From assembly GCA_002498985.1 (NCBI GenBank), contig DAJO01000037.1, positions 3,356 to 67,355 of the forward strand: a stretch of 64,000 nucleotides of DNA. The letters run 5' to 3'. The translations under genes and the position numbers were made by a program. Shown piece by piece: positions 2,527-22,900 of the stretch. This DNA comes from Euryarchaeota archaeon UBA257 (GTDB taxonomy: Archaea > Thermoplasmatota > Poseidoniia > Poseidoniales > Thalassarchaeaceae). Every line of letters starts with the position of its first letter. The stretch's first letter is position 1. Below the pieces are notes generated by a model that worked only from the letters and a program-made list of their open reading frames with translations, searched no databases and was not told the DNA's origin.

Positions 2527-3124
2527 CTATTCAATTTCAATCATTCGTGTTAGTGGGAGATTATTCATACAGAGAACTCATGACTGGTGGGCTGGACGGA
2601 CATTCATGGAACCAGTGATTAGAATTTCTTCTACGGTCCAACCATATGAAGATGCTGAAAAGATTTTGAAGTCGATAAAAATGTTTTTCCCTGATTGTGA
2701 AATAAATGAAATACCTGGAAAAGGAGTATTTCCAACGAAAAATAAAGAACAAATAATTCATGGAACTTCATCTACTTTTGATATTTTATTAAATCAAATC
2801 AAAATACAAAGAATTTTAGATACAGCTCTTGATGTTATGACGATAAATTCTGATAATAGTTACACCTATTTTTTAATCTCAAGACAGGCTGCCATCACAG
2901 GCAAAGTTTCTTTTGTTGTAGATGAAGGAGCACTTGGTGGTATGATTAGAATTGAAATTTCTGGTGAAAATATCGATATTTGGTTGGAACAACAAACCTG
3001 GCACGAAGGAAGGAATGAGTTTCCAAGATTTTCTGGAGATGAATTGGCTATGAGAAGAGATGGTGAACCAACAGAATGGTTTGATAAAAGAGGAAATCCA
3101 ACAATCAATATCGATGAGGATTAG
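2509..3124 (+). CDS. hypothetical protein (start uncertain)
   Basis: The track ORF 2372..3124 overlaps the divergent upstream gene. The first ATG clear of that gene is 2509 (MIHLSN). No recognisable catalytic motif. Confidence 0.4.
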
Positions 3125-4103: not shown

Positions 4104-4128
4104 GATAATTTCGATAAGTAGGTGATAG

Positions 4129-4521
4129 TTGGTGTTTTCCCATACATACAATCGCTATATTCATCATTCAGGTATTCCTAGCGTGTATATGACAGAGGAG
4201 CTTGTAGTCAATATTGCTGAAGACGAAGAGCTAGAAAAAGTAAGTAGATTAGGTGTCATTGGAGTTATTTGGAGTGAACTCAATGGAGGAATTGGACCAT
4301 GGGGGACTTTGAGACCGTTATTCACGATTATTCTAGCGCTTATACCGTTCCTTTTTTTAGGTCAACACTTTAATCGGCAACACGAGAAAGCAAATGGCTG
4401 GTTCTTGATACAGTTACCATTACTCTTCACTGTGATTTTGTGGTTTCTACTATATGTTTGGTCTATTGGAGATGCATTTTTTGTTTCAAGCAGAATAGTT
4501 GCTAAAGCCGAAAATGAATGA
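4129..4521 (+). CDS. small membrane protein, hypothetical
   Basis: Two or three hydrophobic helices. A more plausible start is MTEEL at 4189. No motif. Confidence 0.35.
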   Translation: MVFSHTYNRYIHHSGIPSVYMTEELVVNIAEDEELEKVSRLGVIGVIWSELNGGIGPWGTLRPLFTIILALIPFLFLGQHFNRQHEKANGWFLIQLPLLFTVILWFLLYVWSIGDAFFVSSRIVAKAENE

Positions 4522-5033: not shown

Positions 5034-8000
5034 TCAGGTAGTAGTTCGATCGTCATATCTTATCGGCGAAGCACTATTTCCACGGACTCCATCTAACATA
5101 TCATCTTCGATCTCAAAGAAGTCATTTAACCAGTCTCCATCAGTATCCCATTTAGTTGGATCTGTACCATCTGCGATCTGATCTCCATCAATATCTAAAG
5201 TCCACCACCCATATACATATTCGCCGAGTCCAATATTAGGAAAATGATACTGATCACCTGCAAATCTCTCATAGGAATCTGCCCATTCACCGCTACAGAG
5301 GGTCTCATCGTCAGTTGTATCTAAATACTGATAATCCAAATCATTATCATCAACTATTAAGGCAAAGAGTTGGTCATTATTATTGATTTTATACATTCTG
5401 AAATAATTAGATGTCAGGGCAGATGAACCGGAGCATGTACCTAACAAAGACTCTCTTAATTGCCACCATTCTTCTACATAATTTCCTGAACAGTCATTTA
5501 ATAAAGATTGACGCACTAATGTAGGAGAAGATAATGAAGCATTTACAACCCCATAATATTCTTGGAAATTATTGTAAGGTTGGTAGACACAATTCCCTCC
5601 TGAACAGTCCCAACCACCATCATTATCAGCATCTTGGCCTGCATCATTTGCGTCTGTTGCATCATGTGTAAACCATACCCAATTCAGAACTGGTCTAGAT
5701 ATGACATTATTAGAAATCAGAACTGGTTTCAGATTATTCGCTGAAATTTGTTCCCATTGGACTTGAATTTTGAGATATGATGACCAATTGTCATTAGTTT
5801 CGTTCCAACCCCTGTAATATTCATAGAAGTCTGGCATCATATCTCCATCTGTATCGTTATCTAAAGGATTAGTACCATATTTGAAAACTTCTCTACCATC
5901 ACTTAAATTCATATCTTGAATATAGTCTGTGACTTCACCATTAGTGAATACTGGTTTCATAACCATAGAATCATCATCTGAATCAGCATCTAATGGTAAT
6001 GTCCCATTTTCATATTCCATAATATTGCTAAAGAATAGAGGAACGAGGCCATTACTAATTTGATCTTCTATATTCGCGGGAGTAAATTGTCTATTTTCCC
6101 ATTTACCTTGAGTTGCAGGGACATCTTCCCATTGCCTGTCATACCAACCATCTTCATCAGGATCATAATTTACATCGAATGGATTTATTGGGTTCATTGA
6201 CCATCTGTAGTCATTGACTGGTAAGTACTGGCCATATATCGAGAAACAATATTCCCAACCATCAGGCATTCCATCTCTATCTGAATCTGAATCAGTAGGG
6301 TCACTAATTCCAGCCAAACTAATATTGAAGTTATCAGGATTAATCTGGTTAATCAATCCAGTTTTCTCGAAAGAAGATATAGACTTCGTAGAGAACGTAA
6401 CATATAATTGACTCAGAGCCAAAGAATAACTCATAGATTGCTCATCCATGTATGCATTCACAGTATCGGCTCCGTATGATACTAAACCTGTTCCATTCGG
6501 AATGCTGTCTATTGCCAATTTTTTGCCATATATCCTAGACTCAAACTCTGCCAAATTATCGAAAGATTCGGATGGAGTAATTATTCCATCTCCATTACAA
6601 TCATAAGAGTCATCGTCACTATCAACAAAAATATCTGTATCTGTAAGAAGATTCATCTCCCAACGATTATCTTCAAGATTCCATTCAGTGAACCAATATT
6701 CGTAACCATCACTCATTCCATCTCTATCTGTATCTTCAGTAGTAGGATCTGAAACTCCAAACAATGCTTTCAATAGAGGTTTTGCTGTAGCCCCGCCTTG
6801 CCAATCTGTAAACTGCTGAAGCGCGAGTTGAGCTCTACCTTCTTTATTAAATAGAATCCTGTATACTCTGTTTTCAGCCTCAGAGGGGTCAAGATATTCT
6901 GCTTCTTCCCAAAGACGAGGAGCATCTGGAGGAGATAACCCGCCATTAAATGGATTGTTTAATGTTAAATTAAGTTCAATTTGATCAGAGATACCGTCAT
7001 TATCTGAGTCGTAATTACCATCATTTGGAACAAGTGGATTTAGGGTCCAAACACCATCTGTTGAATTCCATCTTGTGAAAATTAACTCCATACCGTCAAG
7101 TAATCCGTCAGAGTCAGTATCTGGATTATTTGGATCTGCTGTAAAACCCGTCAGATTTATCTGTTCAGGTGACAAAAATGAACCAAAAGAACTGGAAGAT
7201 TCTGCAGATAACCAAGGATTAGGGAGATACTCACCTCCAAAGTAAAGTAGATAGAATTGTGGAACTGTAATTAGATTGTCTATCTCTGAAAGATTACTAG
7301 AAATTACATTATATTCTTCCCAGTTATTCATTCCATCTCCGTCTGGGTCGCCTATACGATCATTTTCATTGACTGGATTTAGGGTCCAAGCGCTATCAAA
7401 AAGACTCCATCGAGCATGGAAAAACTCCCAGCCATCTGGCATTCCGTCTTGATCCGAATCTGAACTAAGTGGATTACCCGAACCAATATCAATTTCAGAA
7501 GTAGCATTGATTAAATTATTGTAAGAATTACTGGCATACTTACCGAATGAACCGCCAGCAAAATCTTCCCATGTATCATTGAACAATAATGTAGTGAAAT
7601 TCTCCGGGAAAGGTATCCCATTGTCTGTACTATCTGAAAAGATAAGTTCTGATTTCAAATGGAACTCCATCCAATTTACGAGTCTCTCTTCAAGTTCTAA
7701 GATGCCGTTATGATTGACATCATATCCGTCACCATCAGGGTTATTTAATGCATCAGAGCCATTCAAAGGATTCAATCCCGCTGCATCAATAGACCATGAG
7801 CAAGAATACCTTGCTTCCCAGCCATCAGGTAATGTATCTCCGTCTGAATCAACATTGTTTGGGTCAGTTGCTGTCCAATTTAACGCTGCATCTGAACTTT
7901 CACCATGAGAAGGTAATCCTTCATTAATAACTGATTGAAGTAAATTTGACCACTTATATTCACATAGATTAGAAAGTCCATCGTTATCAGCATCTTCGTC

Positions 8001-10754
8001 AGCATCGTTAGGATTTCTTGGATCTAATGTCCATAAATTACCTCCATTATAAACATCTCCAATCCATCTTCGATTTTCAATTTCCCATCCATCAGGCATT
8101 CCATCTCCATCAGAATCTGTATCAGTCGGGTCAGTAGGGCCATCTGTTCCTCCGCCAGCACCAGAACCAAGCCATCCTTCAAGATGGACTGATAACGCTT
8201 CAGAACCTACTCCTTCATCACAAATATATTCTTGATTTAAGTAGTGACAGTCAAAGTTAGTAGATTCTGTGAACCAACCCCAATATTCTTCACCATCAGT
8301 TAATCCATCTCCATCGGTATCAATATTTCTTGGATCTGTTCCATTGAAACCATTTTCAGAGTTAGTGATAAATCGGAATTCATCCAAATTGGTCCAGCTC
8401 CTATCAACTCCCTCACCAAACTCTGAGTCGTATAGAATTCCATCCGCGTCAGCATCTCTATCACGGTCATATGGATCAGTTGGATCGAGACCATGAATAA
8501 ATTCCCAACCATCAGGCATCCCATCAAGATCGGAATCGGTAGATTGGGGGTCAATTGGCATGATATTCATGTAATTCCCAGGAGAAATACCTGCAAACAA
8601 GATTATTGATTCAGAAGATTCTAAAGTAGTTAATGAACTGACTAAACCAGGAAGGAATGTTTGATTATCTGACATTCCAGTTACTCCTTGGTAACCTCCT
8701 TCAAGAACCCAAGTCCCATCTTTAGAACCAACAATTACTTGATTGCTAAATGTATGAATTGAATGAACATCATTTGATCCTGAAAGCCAATTTTCCTGAT
8801 TCCACATCCTCTCAGAATCAAAAGCAGTTAGTGGCATTGATATCAATTTATCAATATCAATCAGATGTAAACCTCCTGATGTGCCAATCCAAGCACCTGT
8901 GATTAATTCAAAATTACCGGATGCGTCTTTAGGACCTGCAGGTTGGAGAATATTTACTATAGCCGACTTTGAAACGTTGAGTAAATCTGCTTTTTGAACG
9001 AAATTTTCTGCGTTTTCCCTGTTGAATACCCACCAAGGAGTACCTACTGAATCAGAGCCATCTGTGGTATTCCAAGCCATTAATCCTCCATCAGTTCCAA
9101 TGAGGAGTAAGGGGCCACGTCCATCCATTTCCATATGCAAAGCAGTATTGACATTCGCCGCATTATTGGATAAAATCTCAGATGTTGATTCAAGATAAAT
9201 TAGAGAGTTTATTGATTGCCCGGATATCGATGCAGTCCAAACATCTTGTCCCGAGAAAAGCATTAGATCTAGGCTTCCACTACCTGTACTAAGCACAACC
9301 ATCTCATTAATCGAACCGACAGAAACGCTAGATTCAGAGTCTTCAAAAGTTGTTGAATCTATTTGTGGGACTCCGTTCTGCATTTCTGCTATTGATATTC
9401 CTTGATTAGTTAACAATATTAGATAGTCGCCATCATCATTCGACCAATCCATCATTGAATTCAAAACTAAACCAGATGGTAGATTAATCATTGAAGATAC
9501 TTCATTAAAGGGGTCCAGTATTGTAATCCCAAATTCTGAACCTACGAGTAATCTATCTCTCTGATTGTCTGAAATGATACTATGAACAGCCGCATCAACT
9601 AATTGCGGCGAAGTAGACTGATCGTATGTAGAGAAACTATCGTCAGAGTGAGATAAGTCTATACTCCTTAGACCAGGAGTCACAGATACTCCTTGGTCAT
9701 AAAATATCATATATTCTTCATAATTGCTAAATGATTCCCCCCAACTAGATGTTGCTACTGAAGTATCAGGAATAATGTATCCATCTCTATCAAGATCCCA
9801 ACCGTCTGAATCTGAATCTAGAATTGCATCACTAGCATTTCTTGGATCAAGGCCATAATGTACTTCCCAGCCATCAGGAATACCATCTCCTGGAACTGCT
9901 AAACCTACAGAAATAACTTCTGCCCAAGAATAATAATCAGAATCTGATTCAGTAGGGTCACTACCAAGCCATCCGTCTCCGGTTTCCCTCTCTACTGATT
10001 TCTGACAGGAGTCAGAATTTAATAGATTAATTTCTCCAAAACACCACAAACCATCTCTCTCAGTTATCCAATTATCAGGGGTTCCAAAAAGATACTCTTC
10101 AGAATTAGTATACTTCTCAGTATCGTCTATAATACCATTTCTATCGACATCAAAACCATCTCCACAACCAAATGTAAAATCAGCACATCTATCAATATCT
10201 TCCCACATATCGCTAGAGTCTAAAGGGTCGAACCAAAGACATGTCCATGCATTAGTCGTATTTAGATAACCAAGACCGCCTTCAGTGCACATATAAATTT
10301 CATACCCATCTGGTAGACCATCACCGTCTGTATCAGCTACTCTCGGGTCTAGCCATTCTCTCATTCCTGAATCTGTTAAATCACCTGGCTTACCCGTTAA
10401 AGAAACTCTATCAGTAAAGCATCTGTCTAGCGTATATGGCCAACAATACTCAAGGAGGGCACTAGCACCATCATTATCATGGTCAGACATATTGTCAGTA
10501 CCATTTCTAGAATCAAGTCCGGATATACTAATTATCTCAGTGCCTAAATCAATAATTATATCTTCTCCGAATAGTATTTCTTCATGGAAATCAGGTATCT
10601 TATCTCCGTCTTCATCAGTTACTGGAGGTCCGCCCCCTGCGGCTTCACCTGGGTCGACATTTTCTACGGGTGCTTGTGGCCTGGTTTGAGAAACAAAGGC
10701 TAAACTTGACAGAATTAGAACTGTCATAAGAAGTGCTGTCTGTTTACGCCTCAT
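5034..10754 (-). CDS. giant secreted protein (1906 aa) with thrombospondin type-3-like Ca-binding repeats and a central beta-propeller-like region
   Basis: N-terminal signal peptide (MRRKQTALLMTVLILSSLAFV). At least a dozen DxDxDGxxDxxE-aromatic repeats (DTDGDGLPDGYE, DSDGDGMPDGWE, DSDRDGMPDGWE and others). A central region has propeller-like GTDGGL / GTSGGL blades. Many N-x-S/T sequons. No C-terminal TM helix. Confidence 0.8.
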   Translation of the reverse strand: MRRKQTALLMTVLILSSLAFVSQTRPQAPVENVDPGEAAGGGPPVTDEDGDKIPDFHEEILFGEDIIIDLGTEIISISGLDSRNGTDNMSDHDNDGASALLEYCWPYTLDRCFTDRVSLTGKPGDLTDSGMREWLDPRVADTDGDGLPDGYEIYMCTEGGLGYLNTTNAWTCLWFDPLDSSDMWEDIDRCADFTFGCGDGFDVDRNGIIDDTEKYTNSEEYLFGTPDNWITERDGLWCFGEINLLNSDSCQKSVERETGDGWLGSDPTESDSDYYSWAEVISVGLAVPGDGIPDGWEVHYGLDPRNASDAILDSDSDGWDLDRDGYIIPDTSVATSSWGESFSNYEEYMIFYDQGVSVTPGLRSIDLSHSDDSFSTYDQSTSPQLVDAAVHSIISDNQRDRLLVGSEFGITILDPFNEVSSMINLPSGLVLNSMMDWSNDDGDYLILLTNQGISIAEMQNGVPQIDSTTFEDSESSVSVGSINEMVVLSTGSGSLDLMLFSGQDVWTASISGQSINSLIYLESTSEILSNNAANVNTALHMEMDGRGPLLLIGTDGGLMAWNTTDGSDSVGTPWWVFNRENAENFVQKADLLNVSKSAIVNILQPAGPKDASGNFELITGAWIGTSGGLHLIDIDKLISMPLTAFDSERMWNQENWLSGSNDVHSIHTFSNQVIVGSKDGTWVLEGGYQGVTGMSDNQTFLPGLVSSLTTLESSESIILFAGISPGNYMNIMPIDPQSTDSDLDGMPDGWEFIHGLDPTDPYDRDRDADADGILYDSEFGEGVDRSWTNLDEFRFITNSENGFNGTDPRNIDTDGDGLTDGEEYWGWFTESTNFDCHYLNQEYICDEGVGSEALSVHLEGWLGSGAGGGTDGPTDPTDTDSDGDGMPDGWEIENRRWIGDVYNGGNLWTLDPRNPNDADEDADNDGLSNLCEYKWSNLLQSVINEGLPSHGESSDAALNWTATDPNNVDSDGDTLPDGWEARYSCSWSIDAAGLNPLNGSDALNNPDGDGYDVNHNGILELEERLVNWMEFHLKSELIFSDSTDNGIPFPENFTTLLFNDTWEDFAGGSFGKYASNSYNNLINATSEIDIGSGNPLSSDSDQDGMPDGWEFFHARWSLFDSAWTLNPVNENDRIGDPDGDGMNNWEEYNVISSNLSEIDNLITVPQFYLLYFGGEYLPNPWLSAESSSSFGSFLSPEQINLTGFTADPNNPDTDSDGLLDGMELIFTRWNSTDGVWTLNPLVPNDGNYDSDNDGISDQIELNLTLNNPFNGGLSPPDAPRLWEEAEYLDPSEAENRVYRILFNKEGRAQLALQQFTDWQGGATAKPLLKALFGVSDPTTEDTDRDGMSDGYEYWFTEWNLEDNRWEMNLLTDTDIFVDSDDDSYDCNGDGIITPSESFDNLAEFESRIYGKKLAIDSIPNGTGLVSYGADTVNAYMDEQSMSYSLALSQLYVTFSTKSISSFEKTGLINQINPDNFNISLAGISDPTDSDSDRDGMPDGWEYCFSIYGQYLPVNDYRWSMNPINPFDVNYDPDEDGWYDRQWEDVPATQGKWENRQFTPANIEDQISNGLVPLFFSNIMEYENGTLPLDADSDDDSMVMKPVFTNGEVTDYIQDMNLSDGREVFKYGTNPLDNDTDGDMMPDFYEYYRGWNETNDNWSSYLKIQVQWEQISANNLKPVLISNNVISRPVLNWVWFTHDATDANDAGQDADNDGGWDCSGGNCVYQPYNNFQEYYGVVNASLSSPTLVRQSLLNDCSGNYVEEWWQLRESLLGTCSGSSALTSNYFRMYKINNNDQLFALIVDDNDLDYQYLDTTDDETLCSGEWADSYERFAGDQYHFPNIGLGEYVYGWWTLDIDGDQIADGTDPTKWDTDGDWLNDFFEIEDDMLDGVRGNSASPIRYDDRTTT

Positions 10755-10931
10755 GCTATGACCTCGTCTTAACTACCCTTAGCGACTTTCATGCATTTAT
10801 GACCATGATGGAGCGTCGTTCGGACAAATACACATGATTGATACATTCTGGTGGTATCGAAATGGTGTATAAAAACGATATTTTTGTTATTTGAAACAGA
10901 TTAATTGAAGGACTAAACGTTCGCTCAAGAG

Positions 10932-11762
10932 ATGATTGATATGGGGTTACAGATTACTCATTTAGGTTCAGGTAGCAGAGGTAATTCTACCTTACTAGAA
11001 TCAGATAGTTGTAAAGTACTAATTGATTGTGGGTTCTCGTTGAAACAAACTGAAAAGAGGTTATCAACAATAAAAATTGAACCAAGTTCAATAGATGCTA
11101 TTTTTATTACTCATCACCATGGAGATCATTCAAAATCTGCACTGAAAGCATCTCAAAAATGGGGTTCAAATCTATACTGCAATATTGAAACTGCAATAAA
11201 AATGGGTTGGAATCCTATGTCAGATTGTAGAACATTCGGTAATTTAGAACGAATAAATATTAATGATGAAATAAGTGTTCTTCCAATACCAATCCCACAT
11301 GATGATGCTGAAAATATTGCTTTGATAGTGAGTAACGGTGATGGGAATAGAGCGGGTTTCGTCACAGATCTAGGAGAGGCTACTGTAGAATTGAAAAGAC
11401 ATTTGAAAGGGTGTTCACATATTTCAATTGAAGCGAATTATGACCATAAGAAATTAATGCAGGGCCCCTATCCAGATTCACTGAAAAGAAGAATTACTGG
11501 TCGTGGTGGGCACTTATCCAATAGCCAAACTGCAGAAATTTTATCTGAAATTATGACTCCAGAACTTAGAACAGTTGTTTTATGTCATCTTTCAGATAAA
11601 AATAACGCACCACACCTCGCTGAAAGTGAGGTGTTGATGAGAATTGGTGACGATTTCAAAGGCATGATTTTCATTTCCGAGCAGTCAGGACCAGAATTTA
11701 AAATTATGATTGGAGAGGAAAAAATCAGCAGCCGTATTAATAACGAAATTAGTGACCCATGA
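10932..11762 (+). CDS. MBL-fold metallo-hydrolase (YycJ/PhnP-like)
   Basis: HxHxDH motif (ITHHHGDHS), N-terminal LGSGSRGNSTLL...LIDCG, and a C-terminal GHLSN motif typical of YycJ-like MBL hydrolases. Confidence 0.8.
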   Translation: MIDMGLQITHLGSGSRGNSTLLESDSCKVLIDCGFSLKQTEKRLSTIKIEPSSIDAIFITHHHGDHSKSALKASQKWGSNLYCNIETAIKMGWNPMSDCRTFGNLERININDEISVLPIPIPHDDAENIALIVSNGDGNRAGFVTDLGEATVELKRHLKGCSHISIEANYDHKKLMQGPYPDSLKRRITGRGGHLSNSQTAEILSEIMTPELRTVVLCHLSDKNNAPHLAESEVLMRIGDDFKGMIFISEQSGPEFKIMIGEEKISSRINNEISDP

Positions 11763-14277
11763 CTACTCTATGAACAGAGTTTTGTACTTCCTTCATACGA
11801 TCGTTTGCACCAAGTTCGCGGAATACTGAAAGAGCTTTTTGCAGATACTCCATCCTCTGAGAGCGATCGGTCTCAACTTCACCGAGACGGGCAAGTAGCT
11901 CCCCCTTCAAATGACGGAAGTCATTCGCTTCTGCTAGTGCTAATCCCTCTAAATAATGTTCAGAAGCTTCCTCTTTCCTACCCGCGTCGCTTAATACTTG
12001 ACCTAATAGCATTTCAACTTCAACCGCACTATGAGGGTCCGCCTGTTCAGACAGAATCTCTAGAGCACCGGAGTAATGTAACATTGCTAAGTCATTATCC
12101 TTAATTTTAGCATAATATCTCCCTAATACTGCTCTTGCTCTGGCGTGAAGAGTTTCTTGCCCATTATCCTTAGTTTCGTCATGAGCCAACATTGCGTGAT
12201 CTCGGGCACGATCGAATTCGCCCATCTCCAAAAATGCAGATGCGAGACGGATTCTTGAATCGCATAATTCAGGATTACTTTCTGACTCTAATAACTCTTC
12301 CACGTTACCGTATACTTCTAAGGCGTGCCTATTATCTCTACGGCGACGGAAAATATAACCCATGTTATTATAAGAACGAGCCGCAGAAACTGCGTCTCTG
12401 GTCTTAATTTGAATTTCTAATGCCTGTCTATGTAATTCTAATGCATCATCCATTGCACCTCTTTTAACTGCAATATCAGCCCTAGAAGATAATAATCTAG
12501 CTAATTCCTTATTTTGTTTGTTTTTACGTGCTATAGGAATTGCCGCATCATATTCTTTCTCTGCGGCGTCCCAATGCCCCTGGATCGATAGAATATCTCC
12601 TCTAAGTTCTCTTACAATTCCCCACGATATAGAATCGAAACCTTCCCTGTCCAAAGATCTTAAAATTCCTAGAAGTTCTGTGTGTCCTGATTGTACCAGA
12701 TTTGGTCCTTCTGAAGAAAGAACTTTTGCTAACTCTTCTATTTGTTCTGAATTATGTAAATGGTGAATAAATTCTATCCTGTCAGTAGGACTTGCCTTAC
12801 GGCCACGGTACCAATTGACTGCATTATTATGTAACTCATGACGTAAATTTTGCTCCATTGAGAGTACTAAAAATTCTCTAACTAAATCGTGAACATCGTA
12901 ATTTTCGCTGTCTGCTTGCCTTGCTAGACCTTTCTCAACTAAATCATCTAAAAGATCGATTGCTGCATCAAGATCACTCAATGCACTCAGAGGCATTGGT
13001 TCACGGAAAACTGCAATAGCACCTAGAAGCCTCTTTTGTGGACCAGATAACCTACTAAAGATTTCTTTCTCGACAAATGTTTCTAATGTAGCGTGAAAAG
13101 TCCCCCCTACACTACCTCTATTTATCAATTCTAAAACTAGTGGATGACCTCTAGAAAGCGAATAAATGTGGAGGAATTGAGGAGCGTCCATATCCGGCAT
13201 AGCGGAGAGAATCTGTTTACTTGACTCTTTATCTAATCCTTCAAGAGGCATTACTAAAGTGAGAATTTTCCCTTCAGAGTCTTTCTCAGGTACAACCATT
13301 CTAAAAGATCTAGAGAACATAATTACACCTACTTGACTGAGGTTGGGAATCCTTGTTGCTATTCCTCTCAAGATAGTAATTAGAGTTTCATCGCCAACTT
13401 TATGTAAATCGTCAATTACAATTAAACTTGGAGAATTCCTAAGTCCTTCTATGATTAAGTCAATCGTGACATTGGACTGCGGTATTGGTGTTGCAGCTAA
13501 GTAATCAGAAAGCCCATTATTACCCATTGTTGCTTGCCATTCCGCGGTAGCCTCAAGAAATGCTCTCGAACCTTCCCAATCTTGGCAGCGATGATATAGT
13601 AAATTTCTTTCATGAGTGAATCTCTCAAGAATTTTTCCAGCAAGAGCGGTCTTTCCAATGCCTGCAATTCCTGGAACTAATATTGAAGATGACCTTTTTT
13701 CAAGAAGATTAACCATGTCGTCAACTTCTTTCTCTCTACCGAAAAATTTTCTAGTTCTTGGTAGGTCATTGAAAGAGGTTACTAATTGCTTCTCAATATG
13801 TTTTGATAAATCTCTCTCAATTAATTCAGCTGAAAGGACCGATAAATCTAAGCTACCATTATCATCGATATATCTCAAGATATCTACATGTCTTAATGGT
13901 AAATCAGTTAGCTCAAGAGCATTAATTAAAGCCACGCTTTTTGAACTCCCATCGGGAAATTTCAGCCTTACATTTTGAGTACTTACTTTTTCCCAAATTC
14001 CATTAGCGACTTTTATCCCGTCGTCAGTTAGGAAATACGCTTTTCGCTTACGGGAAACTCCAGTTACATGTGCCTGCCTTTCAATAAGTAGACCCTGTTC
14101 CCTCATACCAGAAATTGCTCTAGGGACATTAGATCTCGCAATTGCTACCGAGTTAGCGATGCCCATCTGCGATAATGCAAATGGTACTTCGACTCTACCA
14201 GCATGTTCAACATAGTCCCTGAGGTGTAATAATATCCTCTCTTGGACGCCGGGCCTTGGCACTGCCATGTTGCTCAT
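11749..14277 (-). CDS. wHTH-STAND ATPase-TPR protein (842 aa), putative signal-transducing regulator
   Basis: N-terminal winged-helix domain. Arch_ATPase/NB-ARC-like P-loop (FGREKE...ILVPGIAGIGKTALAGK) and Walker B (LIVIDDLHK). The C-terminal third is TPR-like repeats. Confidence 0.8.
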   Translation of the reverse strand: MSNMAVPRPGVQERILLHLRDYVEHAGRVEVPFALSQMGIANSVAIARSNVPRAISGMREQGLLIERQAHVTGVSRKRKAYFLTDDGIKVANGIWEKVSTQNVRLKFPDGSSKSVALINALELTDLPLRHVDILRYIDDNGSLDLSVLSAELIERDLSKHIEKQLVTSFNDLPRTRKFFGREKEVDDMVNLLEKRSSSILVPGIAGIGKTALAGKILERFTHERNLLYHRCQDWEGSRAFLEATAEWQATMGNNGLSDYLAATPIPQSNVTIDLIIEGLRNSPSLIVIDDLHKVGDETLITILRGIATRIPNLSQVGVIMFSRSFRMVVPEKDSEGKILTLVMPLEGLDKESSKQILSAMPDMDAPQFLHIYSLSRGHPLVLELINRGSVGGTFHATLETFVEKEIFSRLSGPQKRLLGAIAVFREPMPLSALSDLDAAIDLLDDLVEKGLARQADSENYDVHDLVREFLVLSMEQNLRHELHNNAVNWYRGRKASPTDRIEFIHHLHNSEQIEELAKVLSSEGPNLVQSGHTELLGILRSLDREGFDSISWGIVRELRGDILSIQGHWDAAEKEYDAAIPIARKNKQNKELARLLSSRADIAVKRGAMDDALELHRQALEIQIKTRDAVSAARSYNNMGYIFRRRRDNRHALEVYGNVEELLESESNPELCDSRIRLASAFLEMGEFDRARDHAMLAHDETKDNGQETLHARARAVLGRYYAKIKDNDLAMLHYSGALEILSEQADPHSAVEVEMLLGQVLSDAGRKEEASEHYLEGLALAEANDFRHLKGELLARLGEVETDRSQRMEYLQKALSVFRELGANDRMKEVQNSVHRVVMGH

Positions 14278-14345
14278 ATTAGTACAGCAATCTGAATCAA
14301 TACAAGAAGTTTCGGTGGTGGAGTCTCTGACTCAAGTCATCAAAA

Positions 14346-17300
14346 TTAATAATTTGGATCTTCAATCCATTCATTAGATTCTTCATCCCAAATCCATCCA
14401 TCAGTAGATTCTTCAACTTTAGAATCCATATTCTCCGTGGAGTCAATAGAAGAGATATCATCATTTTCATCATCACCATCATCTTCAATTTCTACAAAGA
14501 AATATACAAATACAGCCCCTAAGAGAGCCAGGATTACTATTGAAATTATTCCAATCATTAAACTTGACATGCCATCATCTGCAGCCCCTACTGAAATCTG
14601 AACACCACTTGAATAGTCCGAACCAACATATCTGAAATCAGGTGTGACTGGGCCTTCATCGAATCGAGAGGATGGGATATCTAGAGACCATGTAGAGTCA
14701 CTATTTACAACAGTATTATTGGCAGGCACCTTATTAATCAGAGCAGTGACTGTTTTTCCAGGTAATCCTACACCCGAGAATGTTACACTTTCTCCATCTT
14801 TAACAACAGTCACATCAGGAACATCAATTTGGAAACTTATTGGTATTACTGTGAAAGTAACGTCTAATGAAATTTCTTTAGAACCAAATGGATCAGTCGC
14901 TACGAAAATTACATTTTCTAATGTCCATGCATCCATATCGGAGTCGTAGAAGAACATAGAAATTGGATCATAGACAGCGATTCCATCCTGACCTACATTA
15001 ATTACTAATGCGAAATTATCATCGGAAGTTGCTTCAGAATCAAATACAGATAAAATTAGATCCTGTCCATTATCGATCTCTGTGAAGAATTGATTAAGAT
15101 CTATCTCAGCCTTAGTACATCTATCTTGTGATTGGGACTCAATTTCACAGTAAAGAGTTATTTCTTGCATCCAATTTTCTGAATTGAAAACAGGTTGATT
15201 ATTTCCAGCATCTGAAGGGTTATCAGCAATTATTGAAATTGTAGTCATATCACTGTAATCATATCCGTCATATGATCGGACATCAATCTCATATTCGAAG
15301 TCATGTTGTAAAATTGTTGGATCCCAAGTAGTTGACCATGCTCCATTAGTTTCAAAATCAGATACTGATTGTTGGTGAACGATGATATCTCCGTTGAAAA
15401 TATCTCTGACAGTGATATCTACTCTAGAAACAGAGCCATCATTATCTCTTGCAACACCCTCAATCGTATTATCAGAGACTGAAAGCCTTTCGCCATCCAT
15501 AGGTGTCAGTAAACTTACGAAAGGTGCTGAATTAGAATTGTCAATAGTCAATGTCATTGTTACTGGTTCGCATTCATCTATAACACTAAGACAAAAATCT
15601 GAATCTGATGCCCAAATTGTGAATGTGTATTCAGAAACAACTCTTGGTTGACCACTAAAGTCCCATGTCCATGACCAATCAGCACCACCAGTTGTTGGAG
15701 TTGTACCTTCGAAGTTAGGCCCGCTAATATAGAAATAAATTTCCCCTACATCTTGACTACAAGCAATAGGACAACCATATTGATCGTAAGCAGTTCCCTC
15801 GAATGTGACGGTACCATCTGACCAAGTTGAGCCATCGCTTGGAGTACTTACACTAATTACAGGAGGAGCCGCGTTCAACTTAATTGTCCTTGTAATAATT
15901 GGACTGTAATCGATTCCATCAAACGATCTAAACTCAAAAGTATAGTCAGTTTCTTGATACCCAGACATGTCAAATGAAAAATACCAAGAATTGAATGGGT
16001 GATTGAAACGCGTAACAGTCCCAGGTTCAGCCCCACTATCATCAACTGCCAGACCAGCAGAAGTCCATTCACTTGTGAAAGGATCTCTTACTTCTACAGA
16101 ATGGATATATCCTTTTTGATCCCATTGAGCTAATTCATCTGTAGCATAAAATCCTGCTAATTGACCGTCATGCGCAGAACCAGTAAAATTCACGACTTTC
16201 CTGAACGAATGACCTGTTTCTTGAATTACTGATATAGATGGACCTGTATTTACTAAATTTATTACATCTTGATACGTAGTATCTTGAATAATAAAGTCAT
16301 TTCTATCATAACCAAAGCCAAATTTGTATGCAGTGTAATAATAACGAGAAAGTTCCCTAGTTCCTGCACTATAATCACAATCATCATCGTTATTATCAAT
16401 CGTTAAATCACCATCATTGTCTATCCCATCGGAACATGAATCTTCATATTCATCGTCTGCAAAACCATCAGGGTTATCCCCTCCAGCAAGGCCTCGGAAA
16501 TCAAGATGCGAGTCTGATGCTAGTGCAAACCAGGGAGTGTATCCATCTTCATCAGTGTACAGTGAGTAGAGATCATTTCCTAGAGCATCTTCAATTAACA
16601 CATTTGCATTATCTACTTTCATCCCATCTACCAAGGTTTGGAACCTCACCATTTCAGCCCTTCTTACTTGAACTGCAAATTGAGTTGGCTGAGACTTGAT
16701 AAAAATCTTGGAGGTGTCGACATTTGAAAGATTGGCGAATGTAAAGACTGTAGAGTTATTATCCATATTAACTGCCAATGGGAAGTTTCTAGGTGTTAAA
16801 TTATCACAACTAGAACATTCAGAAATTGGTGTTGGAATTATAGCACCCTGGAATCCATTTGCAGGCCAAGCCTCTTGATCGGGCCAGTCTAGTATTACAG
16901 GATACTCACCAGGAGATGCACTTGGAATGAACTCAGATTGAACAGTTACAGAAGATTTAGTAATGTTATAAGCCGTTTCAATACCATTCCAAGTATTCAA
17001 TGAAAAGAAGCCAAGAGAGCCATATTGTTGTGTATTTGCAAATCCGCTATCATAATTTCGGATTACTGCTCCGGTGCCTGGAGTGTTAAACAAATTTCTT
17101 TGGACATCCATCAATCCACCTATTGCTCTGATACCATCGGCATCTCCGCCTAAGCTAAACTCATTGTCATAGAGTGTTACACCTGAACGGAATACACTTA
17201 CTGCAGGGCAGGTATATTCGCCACCCCAGTACTTGAAGCTAGAACAGGTTCCTGGTGAATTCACACTCACTGTATTATTCGTAAAATGAAGCCTGGATGC

Positions 17301-18575
17301 AGCAGGTGCAGGTCCAGAAGTAGATAATTCACCTACTTGAACTGGAGTTCTTGCAGTATCAGTAATTGTATTATATTCGGCAATAACATCAAAGGAACCT
17401 GTCAACCAAAGTCCATTCCAACCACCTATTGGTCCAATCTCATTATTGTGAATATGAGCCTTACTTGATTGTACAGTAATTCCTGAACGATCTGCTACTC
17501 CTGAAATTTGATTATTATGTAATTCAGCATCACCGCCGTCATAAACAGTGATTCCAGAACCCTCATCCGTATTTATTTCATTATTCCCTACTTCAAACGT
17601 ATATGCGACTCCTTGTATCGCTTTGACACCATTGATATCTATTCCATTACAATTCACATTTATGTCAGAGTTAGTAAGAAGACCTGAAGAACTCACAAAC
17701 GCAAATCCATAATCGCCAGTATTTACAGTAGCATCATTAATTTCTATGAATGTTTCTTGAGCCCATAATGTTGGACGGCCACCATCATTATTTCCACAGC
17801 CATTGTCGGTTCCAATAAAGAATGGAGAATTCATCTTAAGAGGAGTGATTTGTGTACCTGAACCATAAATTTGAACCGCTGAACCACCTACTCCACTTTT
17901 CCCATCATTTCCTGCAACATAAGTGCCCCCCTCAAATATTGGTTGAGCAAGATTAGTTGTTAATACACTGCTTGTATTGATATTGCTAAATCTCATTTGA
18001 GTTAAGGTGGGAGATGCTCCATCAATTACCATAGCCCCATATCGCCATCTGTTAATTGAATCAATGTAGTAAGGAATTCCCCAAGCATCATCTATTGTAA
18101 TATGCCTAAAGCCTGTTTCAGATAAATCAATAGAACTTCGAATTAGCACTCCCTCGAAGCAAGAAGCATCTTCAACCTGTATTTCTTGAGTACCTTGTTT
18201 CATACCTTTACACTCTCCAATTTCACTAGCATTGGAAGGATCAGTCCATCGGAAAGTGATTTTATTTGCCAAACTTGCATCGCCGGAGGAACCACAAGAA
18301 CTAGAACCAGCGCATAGATTTCCTCTTACATCAAGATATGTCCCATTTGGGAAAATAACAGTAGTTCCTGGTTGAATAATTAACTTAGCACCGGATGCGA
18401 TTGTAATGTCTCCGGTTAACTGATGAGTTCCTGACCATGTTTCTGAAGTTATAATAGTTCCAGAAGTAGTTTCATTATTAGCCATTACAGGGCTTGCAGG
18501 CCCTACTAGAGCGATTAACACGCTAGATAACATGAGAAATACTAGGAAGGAACTTCTTACTCGGCGCTTGGACAT
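14346..18575 (-). CDS. type-I membrane surface protein (1409 aa) with right-handed beta-helix and Ig-like domains
   Basis: Signal peptide. Pectate-lyase/NosD-like parallel beta-helix repeats (HNNEIGPIGG, YNTITDTART). Downstream beta-sandwich repeats. One C-terminal TM helix followed by an acidic, W-rich tail. Confidence 0.8.
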   Translation of the reverse strand: MSKRRVRSSFLVFLMLSSVLIALVGPASPVMANNETTSGTIITSETWSGTHQLTGDITIASGAKLIIQPGTTVIFPNGTYLDVRGNLCAGSSSCGSSGDASLANKITFRWTDPSNASEIGECKGMKQGTQEIQVEDASCFEGVLIRSSIDLSETGFRHITIDDAWGIPYYIDSINRWRYGAMVIDGASPTLTQMRFSNINTSSVLTTNLAQPIFEGGTYVAGNDGKSGVGGSAVQIYGSGTQITPLKMNSPFFIGTDNGCGNNDGGRPTLWAQETFIEINDATVNTGDYGFAFVSSSGLLTNSDINVNCNGIDINGVKAIQGVAYTFEVGNNEINTDEGSGITVYDGGDAELHNNQISGVADRSGITVQSSKAHIHNNEIGPIGGWNGLWLTGSFDVIAEYNTITDTARTPVQVGELSTSGPAPAASRLHFTNNTVSVNSPGTCSSFKYWGGEYTCPAVSVFRSGVTLYDNEFSLGGDADGIRAIGGLMDVQRNLFNTPGTGAVIRNYDSGFANTQQYGSLGFFSLNTWNGIETAYNITKSSVTVQSEFIPSASPGEYPVILDWPDQEAWPANGFQGAIIPTPISECSSCDNLTPRNFPLAVNMDNNSTVFTFANLSNVDTSKIFIKSQPTQFAVQVRRAEMVRFQTLVDGMKVDNANVLIEDALGNDLYSLYTDEDGYTPWFALASDSHLDFRGLAGGDNPDGFADDEYEDSCSDGIDNDGDLTIDNNDDDCDYSAGTRELSRYYYTAYKFGFGYDRNDFIIQDTTYQDVINLVNTGPSISVIQETGHSFRKVVNFTGSAHDGQLAGFYATDELAQWDQKGYIHSVEVRDPFTSEWTSAGLAVDDSGAEPGTVTRFNHPFNSWYFSFDMSGYQETDYTFEFRSFDGIDYSPIITRTIKLNAAPPVISVSTPSDGSTWSDGTVTFEGTAYDQYGCPIACSQDVGEIYFYISGPNFEGTTPTTGGADWSWTWDFSGQPRVVSEYTFTIWASDSDFCLSVIDECEPVTMTLTIDNSNSAPFVSLLTPMDGERLSVSDNTIEGVARDNDGSVSRVDITVRDIFNGDIIVHQQSVSDFETNGAWSTTWDPTILQHDFEYEIDVRSYDGYDYSDMTTISIIADNPSDAGNNQPVFNSENWMQEITLYCEIESQSQDRCTKAEIDLNQFFTEIDNGQDLILSVFDSEATSDDNFALVINVGQDGIAVYDPISMFFYDSDMDAWTLENVIFVATDPFGSKEISLDVTFTVIPISFQIDVPDVTVVKDGESVTFSGVGLPGKTVTALINKVPANNTVVNSDSTWSLDIPSSRFDEGPVTPDFRYVGSDYSSGVQISVGAADDGMSSLMIGIISIVILALLGAVFVYFFVEIEDDGDDENDDISSIDSTENMDSKVEESTDGWIWDEESNEWIEDPNY

Positions 18576-18673: not shown

Positions 18674-19912
18674 TTATTCCACATTAAAAGTAAAAGAGAT
18701 TTCCTGAGACCACTTGACTAAGTCCAAAGTGCCATAACCTGAATGGGAATTATGATTAGCAGATTCAAAGTTACTCCTATCGGAAGACCTTGCTAATGCA
18801 TGTTTGACAAGTTTCATTTCATCCTCATCAATATAGCCATCCGAACCTTCAATGGAATCCCCGCATTGTTGAATAATCAATGCCAAAGCTCCTGTAACAA
18901 ATACTGTGGAATCACTCGTCCCAGAAGAGTAAGCATATGGTGATGACAATGTGCTTGAGGCTGTAGAGAAGATATTAACTCCTGGAGCCACAACTTCTGG
19001 TTTTTGATTAGGGAAATCTCTTTCATCTCCTGTTACTGGATCAATCGATGAACCAAAGGCACTGCTACCCCATACATATCCAGATTTAGATATGGCTCCA
19101 ACCGAAATTACTCCCGGAAGGCTGGAAGGTTGAGAAACATCATTTATGTCTAAATCAAGCCCAGTATTTCCTGCGGCTGCTACAACGAAAATCCCTGAAT
19201 CTAATGCTTCTTGAACTGCTAGGTTAGTTTGGGAATCAATATTTGAAGTGAAATCACTAGGAGATCCGCCAAGGCTCAATGAAATAATATCTACTTTCTG
19301 AGTAATTCTACACCACCTAATAGCCTGTGCGACTCGATCGGTTGAACCAGATGTGCCTTCTGAATCCAATGCTAAAGCAACTGACAAACCTACTTCTGGA
19401 GCAACCCCCCTAAAAGTACCATTAGATATCAAGATTCCAGCCATTAATGTCCCATGTGAACTTTCACCGACGTCTCTAACTAACTCATGATTACCCCCTA
19501 CAAAATCTCTGAATCCTAATAATTGTTGATGAGAAAAATCAGGATGACTCATATCAATCCCAGTATCTACAATACAGACATGTACTCCTTGGCCAAAATA
19601 TCCTTCTGATTGTAATTGCCTGATTCCTGTATCTTCGTATGCCCATTCGGAGTCAGGAAGAATTGGTATGAGATATGAGTTAACCCATGGCCAACCAGCA
19701 ATTAACAATAGAGTCAATAAAGAGAAAAAAATAGCACCGGTAGGAGTTTCTGACTTTCTCATGGGACCCAGGGGCCAACGAAGCTGTTTGGCTTCCTCGT
19801 CAGTAAGGCCATAATCATCCCCAGAGTAGCCTAATGCTTGATTATCAATCGTAGTTAGGATACGGTGATCTTCGGGCTCAGGAAGTAAATCAAGATTCTC
19901 TAAAGACCTCAT
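18674..19912 (-). CDS. membrane-anchored subtilisin-like serine protease (peptidase S8)
   Basis: Catalytic triad blocks: Asp (VCIVDTGIDMSHPDF), His (HGTLMAGIL), Ser (SGTSDST). N-terminal TM helix. Confidence 0.85.
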   Translation of the reverse strand: MRSLENLDLLPEPEDHRILTTIDNQALGYSGDDYGLTDEEAKQLRWPLGPMRKSETPTGAIFFSLLTLLLIAGWPWVNSYLIPILPDSEWAYEDTGIRQLQSEGYFGQGVHVCIVDTGIDMSHPDFSHQQLLGFRDFVGGNHELVRDVGESSHGTLMAGILISNGTFRGVAPEVGLSVALALDSEGTSGSTDRVAQAIRWCRITQKVDIISLSLGGSPSDFTSNIDSQTNLAVQEALDSGIFVVAAAGNTGLDLDINDVSQPSSLPGVISVGAISKSGYVWGSSAFGSSIDPVTGDERDFPNQKPEVVAPGVNIFSTASSTLSSPYAYSSGTSDSTVFVTGALALIIQQCGDSIEGSDGYIDEDEMKLVKHALARSSDRSNFESANHNSHSGYGTLDLVKWSQEISFTFNVE

Positions 19913-19990: not shown

Positions 19991-22900
19991 TCAGAAAGGT
20001 GCGCCTGGACGGCGGCCAGAACGACCTTTGGTCAAATAAAGGCCGATTATCACTAATCCAATAATTAGGATATAAGCAATAATGTCTGTATTTTCATCAT
20101 CATCAACACTTGGTGACCTGACATCTACATTCATGACTCCCTGCTCTACACCATCACTAATGTGCCACGAGCCATCATCAATATTTTCTTCATCAAATCC
20201 AGTTGAGTTTATATCAAGCATGATATAATATTGATCAACTTGAATATCAGATAAATCAAACAAGAAACTGAACTGAGTAGATGATTCAGCAGATATATCC
20301 ATTGTCGTCGTAGCATTGACAGAAGTTGGAGAATTACAATCTACATCCCTACAAAGTTGAGCATTAAGTTGCACATTTTCAGCATCAACTAATCCACTAT
20401 TAGATATTGTAGCGATATATGTTATTTGGCCACCAGCTTCTGGTTCTCCGCCTCCCAATGCTTGAATTCCTTCAATCTTCAATACAGGTTCAGAACTTCG
20501 GACCTTAATTTCAATAGTATCGTATGAGTTTCCGGCTTTATCTGTCACTGAAACATAAATTAAGAACTCTTCATTCGGCATTGCGTCGCTTGGGGAAACA
20601 ACAGTCACACTATGAGAAGTACTGACGAAACTACCGATTGTGTGTGAAGTTGGACCTGTCCTACTCCAACCATCGGGCAATTCTGAATCGTCAAACTCAA
20701 ACTCATATTTTTCATCGCCATTTCCAGCATTTGTAAACTCTATTGGTATAGTAATTAATTCTCCTGGAGAGACTCCGTATACTTCAGACATAGGATTAGT
20801 AAGTTCGAAACCATGTATTTGAGGGACTCTGACTATCAAATCATGTGAAGCCAGATAACCATCTAGAGTTGAAATACTAATCGTAATCTTATGTCCGTCT
20901 TCGAAAGAATGTGCTACAGATTGATTAGGTGCGATTACACGGATATTCAAATTATCGAAATCAACGCTGTTGTCTAAACCTACTTCAAATTGCGTTGAAG
21001 TTGTCCAGTTTCCTGTACCGTTATGGAATTGAACTGTCCATTCAGAACTATCAGTTCCAGAAACAATACCTCCAACGGTAAATACATCATATGATTCATG
21101 ACCGAGGTAATCTACAGCGAGAGTGAAATCTACTGGGAAAAATCCATTTATTCCATCAACTTCTAATGAAACATCACCCAATGATCCAACATAATTTTCG
21201 TGACCTGAGGTTTCATTCAGTGTAGTAATTTCAATTTCGTGATTTGAAACTCTATTGAATAATAGGTCGATAGTTGTATTGAGACCTGGATAGACATCAA
21301 AGCCTCTTCCTGCAGTAAACTCCATGGTTAATCCTCTTTGCTCTACTTCAAAGTCGCCAGAAAATTGAACATTACCATTAGGAAGTAAAAGATTAAGATT
21401 TCCGGTTTCATCCACGCTTTGTATCCATTTCATTCCGAATCCAACATCGACTAATAAATTCGCATCTGAAATGTCTCCTAGATTACGTGAGTTACCGTCA
21501 TAATCTAACCATTCTGTTTGAACCTCAAGAATACCTCCACTAGTTAGTTCCATATCTAAATTATTTGAATTACCAGTAACATCAACATCCAATAGACCCA
21601 TTATTATCAAGTCCTGACTCGGTACGCTAGCACTTACTATCCATAGACCTGGTTCCAGTTCCGTAGACCAGCTTCCAGACCAATCATCATTGATTTCAAT
21701 TGCTACTGTATCTCTAACTAGACCCTCAGTAGGCATTATCATTAATTCGATATCTTCGACAGGAATACTGGAAATACCAAGTGCATAGGTAATATTTCCA
21801 TAAACATCAACTAGACCTGCAACTAATTCCAATTGCACATCATTAGGAGAGTCTGAAACAGATATACTTTCATTAATGCTTTCAAACCCATCATAAATAG
21901 TTTCAATTTGCCAGCTTGTATTGTATGGTACAAATAATTCCCATTCTCCTGTATTGTCCGTTGAAATTGAATGTTCGTTTGAATCAGATGTAGTTGTAAA
22001 CATCATCTGAACATCAGAAATTCCTTCACCTACATTAGAAGCATTGTTGTTATTCAAATCCCAGAAAACTGTTCCAGTTAAAGCAACATAAAGATTTGCA
22101 GTTAAATCAACATGATTTTCTCCCACTGAAATAGTAACGGGATAACTTTCTACAACCCATCTCTTTCCATCTTCAGTGTAGTTAAGAGAAATTAACCAAT
22201 CTCCCTCTACTACATCAACAGTAGTTAATCCACTGCTATTTGTCGCCTCGATACTGAAAGAACCTAGGTCACTTGCAGACTCCATTAACAAACTAACTCC
22301 TGACAAAGGAGAGCTAGTAGAATCTTCTGATACATTGAATGAAATCTCTGCGAGTTGACTAGTAGAGAATGTTAAACTTTCAGAAGTGATGTCAGATGAT
22401 ACTGAAATCAAATCTCTTAACCCTTCTTTAATATCATTATTTACTATCTCTGTAGTAGCAATCCAATCACCCTGAGGGAAGAAATCAATAATACTTCCAT
22501 TAGAATCGGTAGTTCGAGAAAGAACCCAGCCATTTTCAACATTAGTGAATCTAACTAATTGTTCAGACAAATCACCACCACTTTCATTGGTAAATGACAT
22601 TTCTACTCTCCATTCAGGATCAAATCCAATACTTCTTGTAATATCTGTTGAGTCAATTCCTACTCTGACATCAACATCTCCACTCATTATTCTAGTTCCG
22701 AATAAATCTCCGGAGTTAGGATCAGCAATATCTACAGATATCCTGTAAATTCCTGCCTCTACTGTGACTTGGGCAATCCCTTCGTCAGTCCAATCACTTG
22801 AAGTGGAATTGATATGGTAGTCAATTCCATCAACTAAAGATAGTAAACTGAAATCATAAGTTACTGGAGTACCGTTAGACATATTATTATCTGCAGAATT

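Follow-up and report, generated by a model that had tools for sequence, protein, structure and literature searches.

Does a STAND-type ATPase gene that lies among giant cell-surface genes encode a regulator of its neighbors or a sensor of antiviral defence? The question is raised by a 64,000-nucleotide (nt) stretch of Euryarchaeota archaeon UBA257 (Poseidoniales, Thalassarchaeaceae; GenBank assembly GCA_002498985.1, contig DAJO01000037.1, positions 3,356 to 67,355 of the forward strand), here called the window. The gene is single-copy in the window, and its 842-amino-acid (aa) product carries, from the N-terminus, a winged helix-turn-helix (wHTH) domain, a small domain, a NOD core (nucleotide-binding, helical and winged-helix domains: NBD, HD and WHD), an arm and a sensor built of tetratricopeptide repeats (TPRs). 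It converges with a gene for a metallo-beta-lactamase (MBL)-fold hydrolase. The uncultured Poseidoniales rank among the most abundant archaea of the plankton, and to our knowledge hardly anything has been learned of how they regulate their genes; a literature search for the STAND gene in Poseidoniales returned nothing specific. A first-pass annotation of the window had offered both answers, a dedicated regulator of the surface genes or an NLR-like sensor in the Avs sense. It had placed the two open reading frames (ORFs) and their 14-nt 3' overlap correctly, as confirmed by the ORF coordinates:

11749..14277, minus strand: STAND gene, 842 aa (wHTH, small domain, NOD, arm, TPR sensor), from the ORF list, Pfam, the match to Protein Data Bank (PDB) entry 6mfv, and Foldseek
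10932..11762, plus strand: MBL-fold hydrolase gene, 276 aa, convergent with the STAND gene, from the ORF list, Pfam and the motif HHHGDH at residues 61-66
11749..11762, no strand: 14-nt 3'/3' overlap of the STAND and MBL genes, from the ORF coordinates

Sequence, profile and fold matches place the 842-aa protein among the PH0952-type STAND ATPases. As a single sequence it matched PH0952 (6mfv) with E=1.9e-26 over aa 170-492. A profile of 25 orthologues, compared with the PDB, matched 6mfv with E=4.2e-37 in one stretch (aa 172-787) that runs through the NOD, the arm and the TPRs. No other solved NOD scored below E 0.01 in that profile search, in which the NOD of MalT did not appear and the remaining matches touched the TPR array alone. 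Foldseek also ranked 6mfv at the top (E=3e-17, 694 columns), with apoptosome chains reaching only E 1e-7 to 1e-5. The PH0952 clade has been described as a group of archaeal predicted transcription factors with a wHTH effector, a NOD, an arm and a TPR sensor (PDB 6mfv; Lisa et al. 2019, PMC6468293). Its features were found here: the NOD, arm and TPR region are closest to those of PH0952, and the N-terminus has a wHTH effector fold, as judged from models. The clade itself is already known, and what is new is a member from Poseidoniales. The domains are arranged as follows:

13984..14253, minus strand: N-terminal MarR/PadR-like wHTH, aa 9-98, the predicted DNA-binding effector (alignment, model, Foldseek)
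13768..13983, minus strand: small beta-hairpin and helical domain with linker, aa 99-170 (alignment, models)
12853..13767, minus strand: NOD (NBD-HD-WHD), aa 171-475 (Pfam, PH0952 alignment, motifs)
13648-13674 and 13408-13425, minus strand: Walker A and Walker B, respectively, both within the NOD
12643..12852, minus strand: arm/HD2, aa 476-545, the least conserved segment (model, domain identities)
11752..12642, minus strand: TPR sensor, aa 546-842, with 15 helices forming about seven TPRs and a capping helix (Pfam, model)

The NOD has the features by which STAND ATPases are recognized, namely a P-loop NBD with Walker A and Walker B, a GxP-type motif and a conserved histidine in the WHD. Walker A (GIAGIGKT, residues 203-210), Walker B (LIVIDD, 285-290), the GHPL motif of the HD (377-380) and the MHD-like VHDL motif of the WHD (462-465) were invariant in the 25 orthologues. 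In STAND proteins, the conserved MHD-like histidine of the WHD clamps ADP. ATP/ADP-dependent switching and oligomerization of the protein are predicted. Among Pfam models, AAA_16 matched residues 177-310 with 37 bits against a cut-off of 32.6 bits, and TPR_12 matched five times across residues 550-800. PF01637 and NB-ARC, the profiles that the first-pass annotation had proposed for a check, both gave matches but below their cut-offs: ATPase_2 (PF01637) did not reach its Pfam threshold, and NB-ARC scored 18.2 bits against a gathering score of 23.5, which places the protein outside the NB-ARC/APAF1 clade. Memberships in the NB-ARC, Orc1/Cdc6 and KaiC families were considered and rejected, as all fell far below the respective cut-offs.

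An AlphaFold2 (AF2) model of the full-length protein (pLDDT 77.6) separated the wHTH (11-98), the small domain (102-158), the NBD-HD-WHD core (182-473, of which the WHD occupies 394-473), the arm (476-545) and 15 TPR helices (549-840). Together with the Pfam matches and the motifs, it bears out the first-pass annotation in its description of a wHTH followed by a STAND P-loop NTPase with Walker A and B and a long TPR array. A separate model of aa 1-175 (pLDDT 83) gave ZitR, MepR, SlyA and Pex as its best Foldseek folds (probability 1.0, E ~2e-3, ~90 residues); the top folds were all DNA-binding wHTH regulators of the MarR/PadR type, and several of them, including MepR, have been solved with DNA. 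The 25 orthologues, which represent both families of the order, all share the recognition helix (RSNVPRA, 48-54) and basic wing (SRKRK, 75-79) without change. By sequence, the N-terminus gave weak wHTH matches (E ~1e-4) below the Pfam cut-offs, HTH_Crp_2 at residues 14-68 among them. Within the small domain (aa 99-170), the segment IERDLSKHIEKQL is nearly invariant. No effector besides the wHTH (nuclease, protease, TIR or Sir2) was found in the protein.

A protein database contained 731 relatives. The best 120 of these were mostly 838-851 aa long, with a few truncated proteins (shortest 616 aa), and were 71-96% identical over the matching lengths; the named ones belonged to Poseidoniales, Thalassarchaeaceae or Thalassarchaeum. 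Among GTDB species representatives, 370 stretches encode a relative, and the best 80 of the 370 all came from metagenome-assembled genomes or single cells of marine Group II (MGII). In an exhaustive search with aa 1-545, a single cluster at 56% identity was followed by a drop to 34% or less. This cluster is the orthologue of Poseidoniaceae (MGIIa), 841 aa in length and 52-54% identical to the protein studied here. The STAND gene is therefore a vertically inherited core gene of the order Poseidoniales, present in both families at a constant length of ~840 aa, and is neither mobile nor variable.

The gene also keeps its place. We compared the proteins of the window with 80 MGIIb loci by tblastn and found the same gene order in every MGIIb locus that was long enough: the AglB fusion, an S8 protease, the 1409-aa surface protein, the STAND gene, the convergent MBL gene, the 1906-aa protein and a 156-aa protein. 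In the window, the large members of this block are:

14346..18575, minus strand: surface protein of 1409 aa, secreted and C-terminally anchored, with beta-helix/Big_7 regions; its gene directly precedes the STAND gene in all loci
18674..19912, minus strand: S8 subtilase, 412 aa, a member of the conserved block
19991..29497, minus strand: AglB/STT3 oligosaccharyltransferase with a giant extracellular region, 3168 aa, a member of the conserved block
5034..10754, minus strand: secreted protein of 1906 aa with TSP3-like repeats, divergent from the MBL gene, a member of the conserved block

As the STAND gene is read from the minus strand, the 1409-aa gene, the S8 protease gene and the AglB fusion lie transcriptionally upstream of it; the first-pass annotation had them downstream. 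Only the 1906-aa gene lies beyond the STAND gene, past the convergent MBL gene. The STT3/AglB domain takes up aa 389-646 of the fusion, and the extracellular region is very long. The fusion is also present in MGIIa, with 3182-3189 aa, and nothing in the block diverges more than its C-terminal part (33-44% identity).

MGIIa has the same block, except that the STAND and MBL genes are separated by three genes (3.8 kb) read from the MBL strand. They encode proteins of 155, 741 and 361 aa with sub-threshold DUF7289 matches and a weak Pilin_N match, and homologues of the three were absent from this MGIIb window. In one MGIIa locus (L081, 12527-16298; also in L082-L084), the inserted genes show N-termini like class III signal peptides and form an apparent operon headed by the MBL gene. 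Within MGIIb, the 3' ends of the STAND and MBL genes meet with 0 nt (30 loci), a 4-nt overlap (21 loci) or a 14-nt overlap (8 loci), and are otherwise separated by a gap of up to 38 nt. Because of the 3.8-kb insert in MGIIa and the variable overlap in MGIIb, the two genes do not form a two-gene module. An obligate STAND-MBL pair is ruled out on the same grounds; the MBL hydrolase is a conserved neighbor, and the overlap mostly reflects tight genome packing. Of the pairing seen by the first-pass annotation, the conserved neighborhood holds throughout, direct abutment holds in MGIIb only, and a reading as a module is not borne out.

The MBL protein belongs to Lactamase_B_2 (PF12706; 63 bits against a 27-bit cut-off), and its metal motifs are all present (HHHGDH at residues 61-66, further conserved Asp/His at 32, 123, 146 and 219). 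Its earlier label, YycJ-like, holds at the level of this Pfam family only. We considered and discarded RNase Z and beta-CASP assignments, as TIGR02651 scored 37.8 bits against 293 and aCPSF1 27.9 against 580, over the N-terminal motif only. The sole PDB sequence match of the protein was a hypothetical protein.

In comparison with the closest genome (dS 0.16, unsaturated), the ratio of nonsynonymous to synonymous divergence (dN/dS) of the STAND gene was 0.026, the lowest of five block genes, the others being the 1906-aa gene (0.031), the 1409-aa gene (0.067), the MBL gene (0.091) and the S8 protease gene (0.128). The best conserved domain is the wHTH, with 71% identity between the two families and nearly invariant residues 29-84. 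Identity in the TPR sensor is 76% within each family and 49% between families, and the arm, the least conserved domain, is 35% identical between families. A very low dN/dS combined with a conserved TPR sensor is the opposite of what marks a diversifying immune sensor.

These results bear directly on the defence reading, in which the protein would be an NLR/Avs-like antiviral sensor whose TPRs read a viral protein and whose oligomer acts through the wHTH or the MBL protein, as in a system like AVAST type 1. A STAND core with TPRs is common to Avs proteins, Avs4 (8dgf) was found by Foldseek with E ~1e-5, AVAST type 1 includes an MBL-fold protein according to the NCBIfam description of NF041809, and the convergent MBL gene abuts the STAND gene in MGIIb. 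We nevertheless regard this reading as highly improbable. PADLOC returned no model of Avs or any other defence system for either protein, the STAND protein receiving only a generic TPR match and a 19-bit match to PDC-S73, and the matches to nSTAND1, 3 and 6 covered the P-loop only and stayed below cut-off. Avs1a (NF041809) matched the MBL protein with 17.2 bits against a 420-bit cut-off and over aa 15-73 only, and short sub-threshold matches to LmuA and RTasMBL likewise fell on its generic metal motif. The N-terminus is a wHTH instead of a toxic effector, the MBL gene is 3.8 kb away in MGIIa, the gene is a syntenic core gene throughout the order under the selection described above, its neighbors are housekeeping and envelope genes with no defence island, and a scan of IMG/VR viral contigs found no close relative of the STAND protein. 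The Avs option of the first-pass annotation is therefore not supported. That annotation had also staked its case on hits from defence predictors and on a conserved link to MBL or surface loci: the predictors came back empty, whereas the association with surface loci was kept across the order and in distant paralogues, as detailed below.

With a cell-envelope block as its fixed place, the most probable targets of the STAND protein are envelope or surface genes. In the intergenic regions of the block, three elements concern the STAND and 1906-aa genes:

14297..14315, minus strand: promoter-like block CCGAAACTTCTTGTATTGA, 20-38 nt before the STAND start codon (alignment of 18 orthologous upstream regions)
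10806..10825, minus strand: 20-nt non-coding element GTCCGAACGACGCTCCATCA, candidate operator of the 1906-aa gene (alignment)
10795-10802, minus strand: TATA-like TCATAAAT of the 1906-aa gene, 3 nt downstream of the 20-nt element

In MGIIb, 44-102 nt separate the STAND gene from the 1409-aa gene, and the promoter-like block in this spacer, which reads CGAACATTMTTGARTG in other MGIIb, fits a BRE/TATA-type promoter belonging to the STAND gene itself. Given this conserved block, the STAND gene is not obviously co-transcribed with the upstream 1409-aa gene. Despite saturation at synonymous sites, 69 of 84 loci contain the 20-nt element exactly; it is the exception in the divergent MBL/1906-aa spacer, most positions of which cannot be aligned between genera. 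MGIIa carries the close variant ACGAACATCGCTCCATCA. The element is a strong candidate for a transcription-factor site of the 1906-aa gene. Its assignment to the STAND protein in particular is suggested by proximity and by the matching invariance of the wHTH.

Other readings of the 20-nt element were examined and set aside. As an RNA, it matched no Rfam family even with the threshold raised to E 1 and did not fold beyond its shuffles (z = -0.07); a C/D-box reading was dropped for want of D and D' boxes. The element is unlikely to belong to a short upstream ORF (M-S-E-R-R-S-I...): its third codon positions do not vary, in contrast to the saturated synonymous sites elsewhere, and two of 14 aligned species have no start codon. 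A motif common to the element and the other intergenic regions of the block was sought, and none recurred; the sole likeness to the promoter block of the STAND gene is a core, CGAAC(A)T, that may simply be a BRE-like sequence.

Two further elements were observed in the block. A nearly palindromic sequence CTTTGAAYRAATCC (minus-strand reading; 10883-10897 of the window on the plus strand) is conserved across the order, including MGIIa (L081, L083), ~35-50 nt before the MBL start codon, and probably serves as promoter of the MBL gene. In many MGIIb genera, the TATA-like TGATTAAAT of the 1409-aa gene is closely preceded by a hairpin, CGAGCC-T(A/T)CG-GCTCG, with a UNCG-like tetraloop (L009, L010, L016, L023 and L043, at ~5640-5660), in place of which the species group of the window has an unrelated sequence; the hairpin may act as a terminator, influence RNA stability or serve as a binding site.

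The STAND protein has a wider family. Profile retrieval confined it to Thermoplasmatota, with Thermoplasmatota/Thermoplasmata proteins of ~780-950 aa that bear JGI names such as 'TPR/MarR' and 'MalT/MarR', and a profile of 26 distant members showed the same N-terminal wHTH consensus. Some Thermoplasmatota genomes carry several copies, including tandem pairs. At seven of 10 sampled loci of distant paralogues, surface genes adjoined the paralogue or lay no more than 9 kb away; these were PKD, Big_9, cadherin, FG-GAP, alpha-2-macroglobulin (A2M) and beta-helix giants, Pilin_N genes and an archaellum operon. Tandem pairs were seen in two other Thermoplasmatota lineages (L091, 9001-14108, 855 and 824 aa; L094, 9001-14223, 883 and 829 aa). 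The two loci share a context of ribosomal protein L16, a He_PIG protein and FtsZ, and in L091 the archaellum operon lies directly upstream.

On balance we consider it rather probable that the STAND protein is a ligand-gated, oligomerizing transcription factor, probably for envelope genes. At rest, by analogy with MalT and the resting form of PH0952, it would be an ADP-bound closed monomer whose NOD is kept shut by the arm and the TPR sensor. Binding of a conserved cellular or environmental ligand to the TPR sensor would release this autoinhibition, ADP would be exchanged for ATP, and the NOD would open and then multimerize. The N-terminal MarR/PadR-like wHTH domains, clustered in this way, would bind promoter DNA, for which the 20-nt element before the 1906-aa gene may be one concrete candidate site. 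Of the two options in the first-pass annotation, a dedicated regulator is thus the better supported, with most of the surface genes lying upstream of it; its targets are predicted, as is a functional meaning of its conserved link to the surface locus.

Several points weigh against a regulator of the envelope. DNA binding and ATP dependence are predicted, and so are a ligand, the genes targeted and whether they are turned up or down. The wHTH matches are weak by sequence (below the Pfam cut-off) and modest by fold (E ~2e-3), and the HD region (aa 324-393) was modelled with low confidence. Synteny within one order may be inheritance with no functional link behind it. The 20-nt element is no palindrome and is unrepeated: each locus has one copy, the window has no second one, and neither the whole nor any part of it turns up before the STAND gene or elsewhere in the block, so that nothing ties it to the STAND protein in particular. 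Three of the 10 distant paralogue loci have no large surface genes nearby, and the seven that do are a raw count, so that the association of the paralogues with surface genes is suggestive only.

Some of the same observations would fit a STAND transcription factor with global or metabolic targets elsewhere, whose position in the block is merely an inherited order in a streamlined genome. The paralogue loci that lack surface genes speak for it, as do the gene's own promoter-like block, which leaves it not obviously co-transcribed with its neighbors, and the lack of a motif common to the intergenic regions of the block. MalT-type regulators, moreover, usually act at several unlinked operons. Against it, the position of the gene has stayed fixed across families that differ by ~46-48% in this protein, while other genes were inserted alongside, and adhesin, pilin or archaellin genes recur beside paralogues of 30-35% identity in other Thermoplasmatota. 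We consider distant targets possible, though unlikely. Similarly tentative is a bolder form of the envelope-regulator reading, a master envelope switch in which the TPRs of a cytoplasmic sensor would read a conserved signal of the envelope, glycosylation or particle attachment and the protein, after ATP-driven oligomerization, would activate the giant surface genes through 10806-10825; the family as a whole would be the characteristic class of regulators for adhesins, pili and archaella across Thermoplasmatota. That the protein does not bind DNA at all, and serves as a cytoplasmic ATP-driven scaffold or chaperone of envelope biogenesis with the TPRs docking clients and the wHTH used for protein contacts, appears improbable. 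TPR arrays are generic protein-binding modules (the TPR matches include LGN, OGT and Rap proteins), wHTH folds mediate protein contacts in some cases, and the gene is fixed beside secreted giants and AglB. The invariant surface, however, consists of the recognition helix and the Lys/Arg-rich wing (RSNVPRA and SRKRK), which make the DNA contacts in MarR/PadR proteins, and the closest characterized relatives (PH0952, MalT and AfsR) are transcription factors.

A nearly invariant core protein of the STAND-regulator type in an AglB/surface block, the 20-nt element and the recurring link between paralogues and surface genes together offer a concrete, testable entry to surface control, which in Poseidoniales means attachment to particles, glycosylation and exposure to viruses. 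The interest of the locus rests on a candidate core envelope regulator in a globally abundant uncultured order, together with a concrete candidate operator. The locus also serves as a negative example for defence-gene prediction, as a STAND and TPR protein beside an MBL gene is insufficient to call an Avs-like system.

Two other genes of the window were noted in passing. A second S8 subtilase paralogue lies at 54115-55488 (plus strand), where the MGIIa S8 protease gave a tblastn match at 54331-55314 with 39% identity. An ORF of 348 aa at 3105-4151 (minus strand) fuses a Peptidase_C15 (pyroglutamyl peptidase) domain to a NUDIX domain, and this fusion is kept downstream of the block in many, not all, MGIIb loci.

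Among known systems, Avs/AVAST shares with this locus the STAND core, a TPR-like sensor and, in MGIIb, an MBL-fold gene next door; it differs in that here no model match and no toxic effector were found, the gene is a core gene under strong purifying selection, and the MBL gene stands apart in MGIIa. The AfsR or SARP-STAND-TPR regulators of Streptomyces have the same general order of an N-terminal DNA-binding domain, a STAND ATPase and a C-terminal TPR array. Their TPR region matched with E=3e-12 and, in the PDB profile search, with E=4e-8, a likeness confined to the TPRs; in contrast to the protein studied here, they are bacterial and phosphorylation-controlled and carry an OmpR-type SARP DNA-binding domain and a BTAD. 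MalT, the maltose regulon activator of Escherichia coli, is likewise a ligand-gated, ATP-dependent, oligomerizing STAND transcription factor with a helical-repeat sensor, and the STAND protein gave weak matches to Pfam TPR_MalT and NCBIfam MalT. Membership in the MalT family itself was rejected (NF003420, 30.9 bits against a 537-bit cut-off): MalT has a C-terminal LuxR-type HTH, whereas the present protein has its wHTH at the N-terminus and ends in TPRs, with no C-terminal HTH.

The comparison with PH0952 of Pyrococcus horikoshii is the closest. Over the structure alignment the two proteins are ~20% identical, the Poseidoniales protein is ~94 aa longer and has, between its wHTH and NOD, an additional small domain (aa 99-170), and its wHTH looks more MarR/PadR-like than ArsR-like. 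PH0952 has no assigned targets or ligand, and the comparison therefore carries over mechanism and not function. Both are archaeal and follow the domain order of wHTH, NBD-HD-WHD, arm and TPR sensor, and their Walker A, Walker B, GHPL and WHD histidine align residue by residue, with VHDL here corresponding to VHDM in PH0952.

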